DNA of 64,000 nucleotides, from positions 49,602,001-49,666,000 of the forward strand of contig NC_087436.1 of assembly GCF_036321535.1 (NCBI RefSeq). The letters run 5' to 3'. Below the pieces are notes generated by a model. That model was not told where the DNA came from. It was given only the letters and a program-made list of their open reading frames with translations, and made no database searches. Of this stretch, positions 8,095 to 33,774 are shown piece after piece. Every line of letters begins with the position of its first letter. Position 1 is the first letter of the stretch. Source of the DNA: Camelus dromedarius. Lineage: Eukaryota. The translations under genes and the position numbers were made by a program.

Positions 8095-8990
8095 GTAAAC
8101 CGGTACTCCCGATTTTTAAAATTACATGTCCTTATTAAGAAAAATATCTGAACACTCATCCCTAATAAAAGCATATTAATTTATTTATAGATGTAAAATT
8201 GTATAAAGTAAATGCAATATGAATTTAAAAGGGTAAAATAAAGATGAATCAATCTTATTTTAAAAAATATTTTGCTAAGTATGGTACCCTCATCTATTAT
8301 TAGTTTATGGTTTAAAGCCACAATAATCAATTAGACTGGTTTCATATTTAACAATGATATTTGTTACTCTTTATATAAAATCAGCCTCTGGATAATTTTA
8401 AGATTCTTGGCTGACGTCTTGTCACATCTAACTAGATTGTCATTATTTATGCCTTATACAGTGGCCAACAAAGCACTCACACTGAACAGGGCGGTATAGC
8501 TCAGTGGTAGAGCACATGCTTAGCATGCATGAGGTCCTGAGTTCAAACCCCAGTACCTCCTAAATAAATAACCCTAATTACTTCCCCCAAAAGAAAGACC
8601 AGCAAAACAAAACAAATATTAAAAATAAAATAAATGTCACTTCTTTAGAAACATCTTCCCTGATGTCTCTAAAAATAAACCTTTCTTCAAAGCCCTCATG
8701 CTGGGTATGGGAGAACTCAGCTCACTACTGCAGTTTGTTTGCTATGTTTCAATTTAGTGTAACTTTCAATCTGCGATTTTCCTGCAGGAATTTTTCTAAG
8801 GTTCTTATGCTTTATATGAGGTTTGTTTCATTAGAACTAGGTAACAATGGAACAATCCATAAAACTACTTAATTGACCCATGTGGCCTATAAAATATATG
8901 TCAGTATTTTAAACAAACAAACAAACGAACAAACAAAACTGCATGCATTGAGGCATCCCTACCAACTCTTATCTGAGTTGGGAAGATCCT
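8095..8990. mobile_element. Possible degraded hAT-Charlie DNA transposon remnant, interrupted by a SINE
   Basis: Charlie-like terminal motifs (…agttgggaaga) around an AT-rich interior; weak resemblance only. Confidence 0.3.
8489..8632 (+). mobile_element. tRNA-Ala-derived SINE (camelid Vic-1-like)
   Basis: gggcggtatagctcagtggtagagcacatgcttagcatgcatgaggtcctgagttcaaaccccagtacctcc has Pol III A and B boxes and AGC anticodon context, followed by taaataaataaccctaattacttccccc and an A-rich tail. Confidence 0.9.
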
Positions 8991-10426: not shown

Positions 10427-10890
10427 TGTGTCAATTTGAATCCTCTGAGAAGCAGATACCAGTACAGAATTAGATGTATAAGAGAGATTGGGGGGGGGGG
10501 GATGCTTTTGATGGATAAAGAGGGAAGAGGTAGGAGTGCGCCCCAGGAGGCTTCAGTCTGTGATGCAGGGCTGATGTCTGTGGAAAGAGGAAGGAAGACT
10601 GGGGAGGAAGAACTTTAGACAGTTGCACAGTTCTGAGAAAGCCTCAGCCAAGCTGATGGGAGTCCCAAGATAAGGCTGCCCATTGGAGGAGTCCCATATC
10701 CCACAAACAAGACCCCATTCTGGTACCCTTGCTGTGCTGGGTCACTGGCTATGAGCAGTTTGGGAAAGTCTGGCCTTGGTGAATGCTCAGTGGACCAGAA
10801 GGTGTGGCGGCTGCAGCTGTCTCAGTCAACTGTGTTTTCATAGCACAGGCTTTTGAAAAACATATGAGCAGTGTACCTCCATGGCCACCA
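10427..10890 (-). mobile_element. ERVL-type solo LTR (LTR16/LTR33-like) inside old L1
   Basis: tgtgtcaatttgaatcctctgagaagcagatacc start and ...ccatggccacaca end (TG...CA); GC-richer block within AT-rich L1. Confidence 0.65.
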
Positions 10891-11183
10891 CGATACAAAA
10901 CATACACACCGGCACTTCTGGAATAGAGTTAACCACTATTTTGAGGGAAATGTATGGCAGTAAGTACTTGGAATAAAAGCTTATTAATGAGCTTTTTTTC
11001 ACCATAAGTTCAAAAAAAATGTCAATAGAATAAACCCAGAGAAAATAGAAATAATAAAGATAACAGCATAGATTAATATGACATAAATTTAAAAATGGAA
11101 TACATGTGCTTAAAATAAATTGTTGAAAAATTTAGTAAAATACGTAACCATTGGCAAAATGGATCAAAAAAACATCAAGTAGT

Positions 11184-11224
11184 GCAGCGTTGGTGGTATA
11201 GTGGTGAGCATCGCTGCCTTCCAA
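11184..11224 (+). pseudogene. Tailless retropseudogene of the tRNA-Gly(TCC) 5' half
   Basis: GCGTTGGTGGTATAGTGGTGAGCATCGCTGCCTTCCAA (11187-11224) matches the mammalian tRNA-Gly-TCC 5' half as recalled, with one mismatch; flanked by perfect direct repeat AAAAAACATCAAGTAGT (11167-11183, 11223-11239). Confidence 0.93.
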
Positions 11225-12019
11225 AAAACATCAAGTAGTAACGCAAAAAGAAACATACTTGTAGTTACAGTGAATAGCTAAAATGATAAGGAAATAAGAT
11301 GAACAGTCTGAATAATGAATAGGAGAACTTAGGTAGAATGGATAAAATTATTAGAAAAATATAACATACCAAAAATGACTTGGAAAAACAAGAATATCAA
11401 ATAACCCTAACTAGTCTAGAAATTAAATCAGTATTTTAAAGTCTTCCTACCAAGAAAATATCAAGTCCAGCTAATTTTTATGTGACTTCTGCCAAACATT
11501 TAGGGATATGATCATTCCCAGTAAACAGAAAATCTTCTAGAAAATGGCAAACACTTCCTACCTCATTTTATATAAGCACATGTGAAATTATAAATATCTA
11601 TTGTATAAAATATATATATTATATAATACTTATATATGTAGTACAAGCTTCAGTACCCAAACAGGCAAAGCAAGTATAGAATAATATAGAGCTATCTCAT
11701 TCATGAACATAGATGTTAAAATCCCATTGTTAGTACACGTCCAAATGTATCAGTCTCATAAGCATGAGTAAAAAGGAAAAACCTAGAAATTGCACACAGC
11801 ATGATATAATTTTAGAAAGTTCAAAACACAAAAGTAAACAATATATTGCTTACAAGTGCATAGATTCACTCATGAAAAGGTTTAGAATTGAGGATCCTCT
11901 GTGTGGGAGGGAGGAGAATGTGGTCTCTGAGGGCACGTGGCAGAGATTCAGTGTTAGTAATGTTCTTGGTCGTAAGCTGGATGGTGACTCTTTGAAGTAA
12001 TTTTTGTCATATCAGACAT

Positions 12020-12929: not shown

Positions 12930-14520
12930 AACATCTCTGAGATGGAATTTCAAATGAGTTGTAACTCTTAACTACCTGCGTTTATGGGTTGAGTTACATA
13001 TCCACCAAGGAGCGATGAGCACATACTGGGACAGCCATGTACGTGTGACCTGAGAGCAGAGGGTGCCAATGGCCGCAGTCTGAGGGATGGCAGCCTTTAA
13101 AGGAACAGAGGGACCAGAGCCTGCCACTGCAGTTGGAAGCGCATTCGTGGAGCCAATGGGAAAACTTGAGAGTATCGAGTTATGTAAACCAAGGAGGCAG
13201 TGGGGAATTTCAGGAAGTTAGGGTGAAGTCAGCAGGGTCAGCCTCGGCTGAGGATTTCATGAAGACAAAGGCTGAGAAGTGCATGCTGGGTTTAGTGGCA
13301 TTGAGGTCACTGGTTTCTTTGGAGTTGTTGGGAATATACGGAGGACAACATGTAAAGGAGCAACAACTAAGTGAGGAGGAGACAGCCAGGGAGGGTGGCA
13401 GTTTCGAGAAGTTTGCTTCTGAACAGATAATAGAGATAGGACAGCACTTGAAAGGAGATGTGGGGAGGACGAAAGGTTTTCTTTGGAATGAGTGAGAGTG
13501 GAGCACGTTAAGTACTGATGGGCAGCAGACAGAGTGAAAGGATGGGAGTAATTGATGGAGAGAAATCACAGAGGATATGGGAAGGGACAGAGCCAGAAAA
13601 GAAGTGAAGGGACTAACCATAGACAGGAGGAGGTTTGCCTGTGACTTTAATGGCAGAAAGAAGGATAAGAGAGTTTTTTTCTGATAGATTCTACTTTCTC
13701 TCTCTGGAGGATGCAAGGCCATCATCTGCTGTGAGTTGGGAGGAGAAAGCTGGAGGCCTGAGGAATTGTGACTCACCAGTGGGTCTTACCTTTGTCTTCA
13801 CTTTGGCATTGTCTGGACAGTCATCACAACTCCCAGACTGTACCTTAAGCAAATTACATCAGAATACATGACAGGGGAAACCCAGAATCAGTACTCTGAA
13901 TAACTTCCCAGATGATTGTTATGTGCTTCCAAGGCTGAGAACACTACTCTAAACCCTGGTTGTGTGTTGGAATCATTTGGGGGAACTTTGAAATTTATGG
14001 ATGCCTTGATCCTGCCAGCAGAGGATTTAATTGTATTGGTCTAGGATGAGGCCCAGGGATCAGGATTTCTAAAAATCTCCCCAGGAGTCTAATGTGTAGC
14101 CAGGGTTGAGAATCCTTCATGTACGTGGTGGTCAGGCAGTCTGGAGGACTCAGCAAAGATTGGAAACCTCAGGTCTGTCATGACAACAGCTTACAGAACT
14201 GAGTGATGCATGTGGCACTCAGCAGTCCTGATGTAGAATTGGGGAGAATGAAAAGTTGGATTCGTCTGAGCCCAGGGATTTGTCAGTTGTTACTCTCTTG
14301 GAAGGAAAATAGAGAAGGAGACTTGCAGATTACTGACAATAGAGGAATTTAAATGATGGATTAAGAAATGTAAGCTTAATAGGAAAGGAAGTAAAGATAT
14401 GAGGGTGTCCATAAGAAAGAAAAAAAGGGTCCTGAGGCAAGAGCTTCCTATGGGGTTGAAGGACAAATGTTAGGCAAGCAACTGCATGAAAGGGCTGGTA
14501 ATAATTATGAAGGATGATCT
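12930..14520 (-). mobile_element. L2 LINE remnant, interrupted by MER5 elements
   Basis: Purine-rich plus strand; gaagacaaaggctgagaagtgcatgctgggtttagtggcattgaggtcactggt matches antisense L2. Confidence 0.7.
13830..14115. mobile_element. Two adjacent MER5-type hAT-Charlie MITE remnants
   Basis: ttcccagatgattgttatgtgcttccaaggctgagaacact and ctccccaggagtctaatgtgtagccagggttgagaatcc are MER5A/B termini. Confidence 0.75.
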
Positions 14521-33640: not shown

Positions 33641-33774
33641 TTTTTTTTTTTTTTTGAGGGGGGAGGTAATTAGGTTTATTTATTTATATATTTATTTTAA
33701 CAGAGGTACTGGGGATTAAACCCAGGACCTCATGCATGCTAAGCATAAGCTCTACCATTGAACTATAACCCCCC
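33641..33774 (-). mobile_element. tRNA-Ala-derived SINE (Vic-1-like)
   Basis: Poly(T) then ggggaggtaattaggtttatttattt...gaggtactggggattaaacccaggacctcatgcatgctaagcataagctctaccattgaactata; same family as 8489. Confidence 0.9.

Follow-up and report, generated by a model that had tools for sequence, protein, structure and literature searches.

A fragment of tRNA-Gly(TCC) at positions 11187-11222 of the window (the whole 64-kb stretch of dromedary DNA analysed here, C1:49602001-49666000) is a real, further case of a well-known class, and its source has now been assigned. The locus almost certainly belongs to the tailless retropseudogenes, and its 5' leader identifies, at the level of sequence, the Gly-TCC genes of a tandem tRNA array on C23 as the source. 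We consider it probable, at roughly 60%, that it arose when L1 ORF2p copied an intact, unprocessed pre-tRNA-Gly(TCC) in the germline or early embryo, with priming at the anticodon loop.

Results

The original prediction described a perfect 17-bp target-site duplication (TSD) around a tRNA-Gly(TCC) 5' half, and direct reading of the window confirmed this. Positions 11167-11183 and 11223-11239 form an exact 17-bp direct repeat, and between its two copies lie GCA (11184-11186) and nucleotides (nt) 1-36 of tRNA-Gly(TCC) (11187-11222), all on the plus strand. The pair encloses just 39 nt, its copies are identical at 17 of 17 positions, and the left one ends 3 nt from nt 1. It is the sole exact repeat of at least 17 bp at 20-100 bp spacing in the window, a dinucleotide microsatellite aside. 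The fragment is identical to the genome's own intact Gly-TCC genes at 35 of 36 nt and has retained its CpG. The only mismatch is at nt 26 (window position 11212), where C replaces A; this C was found at this locus alone, nt 26 being A in 72 of the 73 dispersed copies described below.

The end of the fragment was also as predicted: its last base, C36, is the last anticodon base, and A37 and A38 of the tRNA fall on the AA with which the right TSD opens (11223-11224, plus strand), probably the microhomology used for priming. In total, 34-36 of the 72 tRNA nt are missing from the insert, the As after C36 being present in the left TSD copy as well, and there is no A-tail beyond the target's own A-run. 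This run comprises seven As on the left and six on the right, with C before both. Because the left run is one A longer and C precedes both, the duplication may be 18-19 bp long, its right copy having lost one A; its possible true start is the C and extra A at 11165-11166 (plus strand), of which the C aligns with C36. In the family, 46 of 52 copies have C before the TSD, and a one-A offset between TSD copies recurs in 3 of 52. The duplication could equally be as short as 15 bp if its final GT is leader. As for the three extra 5' bases noted originally, GCA does lie outside the TSD, and the number of extra bases is 3-5 nt, since the GT that closes the TSD also matches the source leader (GTGCA, positions -5 to -1, at 11182-11186 on the plus strand).

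Directly after the right TSD, AACGCA (11240-11245, plus strand) equals the last 6 nt of the tRNA gene. We rejected it as part of the insert, because a match of at least 6 nt to the tRNA 3' end follows the TSD at chance-level frequency (1 of 57 copies versus 5 of 570 control 12-mers). The original suspicion of chance was therefore correct.

Neither Rfam nor ARAGORN called the fragment 11187-11222, which is too short for such a call, so their silence is no counter-evidence. We identified it as tRNA-Gly(TCC) by comparison with the intact Gly-TCC genes of the genome, which ARAGORN does call; the reversed-pattern control for the 36-mer search of the genome gave 0 matches. Among the 23 public runs listed (two organisms, eight studies in all), 20, with both organisms represented, contain all 93 sampled words of positions 10600-11600, every one of them sharing 1.00 of the sampled words. 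Fourteen of these 20 runs are flagged as a possible source, and six, from two studies, are not so flagged. When positions 10990-11560 were used as a query, the flanks were matched here alone, and the other 39 scored matches covered the insert only (40 of 130 candidates were scored). By this comparison, segmental duplication of a gene or of a further copy does not account for the insert.

We surveyed the 2.3-Gb, 171-contig assembly for related copies. The 36-mer gave 107 genome matches with up to three mismatches (100 among the matches listed), and a 26-nt query without the anticodon requirement gave 82 matches with up to one mismatch and 9 further loci, which likewise extend to the anticodon. 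From 101 short loci we removed 22 full-length or near-full-length ones (genes, one degenerate array copy and the diverged longer copy L101) and six segmental duplicates (L091, L095-L099), which left 73; ten array copies were left out of the fetched set. The genome contains at least 73 independent dispersed Gly-TCC copies, a lower bound, as are all family counts here, that is skewed to young copies by the three-mismatch limit. The idea of the locus as a rare fossil was not borne out: the genome has no fewer than 73 such copies, and supplementary file 2 of Noll 2015 (PMC5322556) has 67 human Gly-TCC entries, next to 16 for Glu-CTC, 16 for Gly-CCC, 15 for Asp-GTC and 13 for Gly-GCC.

A TSD was called (score of at least 9) in 57 of the 73 dispersed copies; this threshold gave a single call among 600 mismatched flank pairs. 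Most of the 57 are 12-18 bp long with an A-rich run at the start, and in 52 copies the TSD begins directly after C36. The tRNA match ends at nt 35 (1 copy), 36 (10), 37 (18), 38 (28), 39 (10), 41 (4) or 42 (2). The proposed check for tRNA-Gly fragments with the same 3' breakpoint was thus positive, with 66 of 73 copies ending within nt 36-39; similarly, 24 of 30 human Gly-TCC entries among those listed in Noll 2015 (PMC5322556) are 36-39 nt. These TSDs, the common end and the match between target and anticodon described below support the predicted tailless L1-type retrocopy. A 3'-half pattern found 30 matches, 25 in the C23 array and five elsewhere, all in full-length copies, and this genome-wide search detected no stand-alone tRNA-Gly(TCC) 3' half.

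Some members of the family have been copied by other means. Segmental duplication has multiplied one tailless copy, flanks included, at least six times, mostly onto small contigs (L055, L091, L096-L099), and another is duplicated in inverted orientation on C38 (L094, L095). Two longer loci are candidate genes or pseudogenes: L100 (C5:38212714-38212786) is a full-length Gly-TCC copy with 95% identity, a 1-nt insertion in the D-arm and a T-run terminator, and L101 (C13:1544318) matches at 86% over nt 2-60.

The GCA had been proposed to be a pre-tRNA 5' leader that names the source gene, and a search for a host Gly-TCC gene with GCA directly upstream had been suggested. Indeed, all 15 intact array genes read on C23 have GTGCA directly before nt 1, which extends the proposed leader by two bases; other Gly-TCC genes have other leaders. 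The locus matches the array leader at 5 of 5 nt, GT coming from the TSD end and GCA from between the repeats, and L056 is arranged alike. The left flank ends in GTGCA in 13 of the 73 copies (null: 0.055% per flank position); with any gene's leader as reference, 18 of 73 agree over at least 4 nt (null: 2.0%); for a 3-nt leader match alone the null is 1.1%. Since the copy carries the array leader, its template was an unprocessed pre-tRNA transcribed from the array, and this speaks against a sperm 5' half of mature tRNA. We infer that transcription started at G-5, because this corresponds to the commonest leader length.

The array (C23:11094000-11305000; L017-L031, L034, L102-L104) is a tandem repeat of about 25 units. 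Each unit measures 8.3 kb and carries Asp-GTC, Leu-CAG, Gly-GCC, Glu-CTC and Gly-TCC; a degenerate unit and an inverted unit close the array, which resembles the human chr1 tRNA array. Two further leaders recur among the Gly-TCC retrocopies, AGTGT in five (L003, L033, L039, L049, L058) and GAAG in six (L052, L055, L062, L065, L070, L076). Neither matches any of the six present gene leaders compared, and both classes possibly stem from lost or changed source genes.

The target sites of the family match the anticodon end of the tRNA. In the 52 copies whose TSD directly follows C36, this base lines up with a C of the target in 46, compared with 18.5% C in the flanks, and the next two target bases are A in 44 and 34 copies, respectively; G39 is matched in just nine. 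Eight of the 52 targets lack the initial A, and there the homology ends at C36. At the locus itself, the target is an A-run preceded by TC, the nick position is ambiguous by 1-2 nt, and the in-register match comprises 2 nt, or 3 nt if an A has been lost. The genome is rich in L1-type reverse transcriptase (RT) frames, some of about 1,290 aa. A control with target sites of tailed SINEs gave 11 matches, of which eight were examined and three had a TSD, a number too small for use.

Two other array tRNAs were analysed in the same way, the samples covering all 41 Gly-GCC matches outside the array (40 regions) and 40 of the 51 Glu-CTC matches. 5' fragments were found in 29 of 40 Gly-GCC regions and in 35 of 40 Glu-CTC regions; 20 of the 29 truncated Gly-GCC/CCC copies end at A37, and 27 of the 35 truncated Glu-CTC copies at nt 36-37. 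Of the 20 Gly-GCC/CCC sites with an anchored TSD, 19 have C in the target at the position of C36, and 17 have T directly before the match. This pattern would fit a nick by the L1 endonuclease (EN), after which those DNA ends able to pair with the anticodon would be selected. To distinguish an intact from a cut RNA, we compared pairing at nt 38: the target has A at this position in 30 of 44 Gly-TCC sites versus 13 of 26 sites for tRNAs with C38, a difference that is not significant (Fisher p = 0.20; range 0.20-0.62).

Among the Glu-CTC copies (L145-L184), 21 of the 35 truncated ones have one to five extra TC units after the anticodon, partly target-derived and partly beyond the target, which suggests RT slippage at initiation on the CUCUC loop of this tRNA. 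In L175 (C2:101728798), a Glu-CTC 5' fragment runs directly into leader-like bases and a renewed start of this tRNA, which may be a double insertion in tandem. Asp-GTC has only eight matches outside the C23 array (genes included), compared with 51 for Glu-CTC and about as many for Gly-TCC, although all three are array-resident; as a general rule this shortage is unsupported, the human list of Noll 2015 having 15 Asp-GTC and 16 Glu-CTC entries.

The insert had been placed inside a much older L1. On its right, positions from about 11314 to 11571 (plus strand, same orientation as the insert) hold a decayed L1 ORF2 remnant, 68-73% identical to nine other genomic copies and the probable host element; its paralog L224 matches L1 ORF2p residues 432-522 (E 3e-24), and paralog L220 has RVT_1. 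The left flank gave no significant L1 match in our searches, and its translation presumably resembles L1 ORF2. The claim is thus supported on the right side and without a significant match on the left, and we consider a position inside L1 likely. Pairwise alignments to paralogous L1 copies, made to find the empty site, placed gaps erratically, and the nine-paralog profile covers 11314-11571 only.

The dispersed copies have no, one, two or three mismatches in 14, 21, 36 and 2 cases, and the locus is, by sequence divergence, among the younger ones and unexceptional. Its perfect TSD is weak proof of youth, as 39 of the 57 TSDs are perfect in a copy set biased to young members by the three-mismatch limit. 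Elsewhere in the window, tRNA-Ala(AGC) was called at 8489-8562 (plus strand) and 33701-33773 (minus strand), with A-rich tails following, and a site near 12983 grouped with tRNA-Ala(AGC) SINE-like heads. The two calls look like heads of a tRNA-derived SINE and not like tRNA genes.

Discussion

Tailless tRNA retropseudogenes have been known since Schmitz et al. 2004, as related in Noll 2015 (PMC5322556) and Doucet 2015. Judged by its sequence, the locus agrees with every sequence criterion of Noll 2015 (PMC5322556): a 5'-complete match of at least 30 nt with more than 69% identity (here nt 1-36, 35/36), a 3' truncation of at least 10 nt without an own oligo(A) tail, a TSD of 8-35 nt that is at least 70% identical and at most 20 nt from the 5' end (here 17/17 and 3 nt), a break in a loop with a target complementary to the terminal 2-18 nt (here the anticodon loop and 2-3 nt), and no segmental duplicate (flanks unique among the 40 of 130 candidates scored). 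In addition, its extra 5' bases match a real gene's leader (5/5 nt), which places it in the pre-tRNA subtype. The class of Noll 2015 and Schmitz 2004 shares all these features with the locus, namely a 5'-complete, 3'-truncated tRNA without A-tail, a break in a loop, a TSD of 8-35 nt and a target complementary to the RNA end, and precursor leaders are allowed for. Our case differs from that of Noll 2015 in that it concerns another mammal, that the leader was traced to one gene cluster, and that two leader classes match no present gene found. The assignment of leaders to genes may already be covered by Schmitz 2004.

The L1-made, 3'-truncated snRNA pseudogenes described in Doucet 2015 (PMC4476161), of which 70-100% have a TSD, are similar in their truncations clustered at single-stranded segments, junction complementarity and shifted EN consensus, whereas the source is an snRNA there and a pre-tRNA here. 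In Law et al. (bioRxiv 10.1101/2025.02.02.635956), nt 1-37 of tRNAs were likewise taken in by L1, with TSDs of 9-19 bp; those halves are, however, fused, mostly in antisense, to a co-inserted L1 within one TSD pair. At our locus the TSDs enclose the 39 nt of tRNA piece and leader alone, and the neighbouring L1 is far older, so that we rejected a tRNA/L1 chimera. A tRNA-derived SINE was rejected as well, since B box, body and tail are missing and the copies have different gene-specific leaders; because these leaders differ among copies, the copies would come from tRNA genes directly. Nor does the locus correspond to a retrocopy of a mature 5' tRNA half as made by angiogenin or RNase 1, which would span nt 1 to about nt 30-35: it has a leader and ends at nt 36-38.

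In the reading we prefer, a C23 array gene would be transcribed from about position -5, and ORF2p would nick an A-rich target before RNase P removes the leader. In the intact RNA, C36-A37-A38 would lie exposed in the anticodon loop, at its 3' side; the freed DNA end would pair with them, and reverse transcription would be primed from there back to the RNA's 5' end. The cDNA end would then join the second nick via the 2-nt microhomology (GT), and fill-in would leave a duplication of 15-19 bp. Internal priming at single-stranded loops with target complementarity is proposed in Noll 2015 (PMC5322556) and Doucet 2015 (PMC4476161); the latter cites Schmitz 2004 for pre-tRNA retropseudogenes and reads them as a sign of nuclear recruitment, which would presumably have taken place here, too. 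The original prediction had offered internal priming or a 5' tRNA half; the leader and the end at nt 36-38 weaken the latter in its mature or sperm form. Against an intact template, the family gives no significant pairing past nt 37, and the 2-3-nt match at the locus is shorter than the 4 matching nucleotides that suffice for priming according to Monot 2013.

A tentative alternative, which we regard as possible yet clearly the less probable, retains the L1 route but starts from a leader-bearing pre-tRNA already cut 3' of the anticodon, at nt 36 or 37, in the nucleus, with ORF2p priming on the last 1-3 bases of this fragment. The sharp common end at nt 36-37 in three isoacceptors speaks for it. 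Neither nt 38 nor nt 39 shows significant pairing, and in 8 of 52 targets no A follows C36, the outcome expected of a cut RNA, so that such a template is possible. A free RNA end would also permit the extra TC units in 21 of 35 Glu-CTC copies; slippage on the CUCUC loop, however, probably requires no RNA end. It also counts against this route that RNase A-family cuts leave a cyclic phosphate and are made in mature tRNA. Law et al. (bioRxiv 10.1101/2025.02.02.635956) favour pre-cut halves for their tRNA/L1 chimeras of nt 1-37, whereas Noll 2015, with data on 5S and U2 and not on tRNA, found no truncated RNAs that correspond to the break points. Our literature search, mostly outside subscription journals, found no nuclear cut at this place in intronless pre-tRNA-Gly and no paper that decides, for tRNA, between an intact and a cut template.

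It is very unlikely that a mature 5' half, as found in sperm or under stress, served as template and that GCA is untemplated or due to chance. Gly and Glu 5' tRNA halves are abundant in sperm, and 10 of the 57 TSD-bearing copies have no base between TSD and nt 1, so some members of the family may derive from mature RNA. For the locus, however, this option is largely refuted by the leader match, which it shares over 5 nt with 12 other copies. Moreover, the mature 5' end is where angiogenin-type halves begin, and the length of RNase 1 halves has its peak at 32 nt (PMC7430647), not at 36-38.

We give similarly little credence to a tRNA cDNA having been captured at a staggered break that was already present, be it without the L1 endonuclease or through a different reverse transcriptase. 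The target sites do have C where the classical TT/AAAA has T, and Noll 2015 (PMC5322556) notes that L1 RT is able to use pre-existing nicks. But most TSDs are 12-18 bp long with an A-rich start, as expected for L1 EN, and the shifted consensus is already described for tailless copies in Noll 2015 and Doucet 2015. Tailless copies are also reported there as absent in lineages without active L1, platypus and chicken (Noll 2015, PMC5322556).

A chance repeat, a decayed tRNA gene or an assembly artefact can be practically dismissed: the missing Rfam and ARAGORN calls are set against the match of 35/36 nt plus leader, the empty reversed-pattern control, the only complex 17-bp repeat at such spacing in the window and all 93 sampled words in 20 of the 23 runs listed, six of them (two studies) not flagged as a possible source.

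The insert is a neutral by-product without a B box, and no function is expected. As a single copy it carries little weight, being neutral and of a class described since 2004, and it could be used as a presence/absence marker once an empty site is found. The family tells more: gene-specific leaders show which tRNA genes were active where L1 was active. With the common end point, internal priming (Noll 2015) and pre-cut RNA (Law et al.) can be tested against each other with one defined substrate.

tRNA introns sit in the nt 36-37 region. It is conceivable, though rather improbable, that the stop at nt 36-37 on leader-bearing RNAs and the AGTGT and GAAG leaders are the fossil record of a real nuclear cut, by a splicing-endonuclease-like ruler on intronless pre-tRNA, and of lost or rewritten source genes. 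If this were true, the leaders would allow past germline start sites and tRNA gene turnover to be reconstructed.
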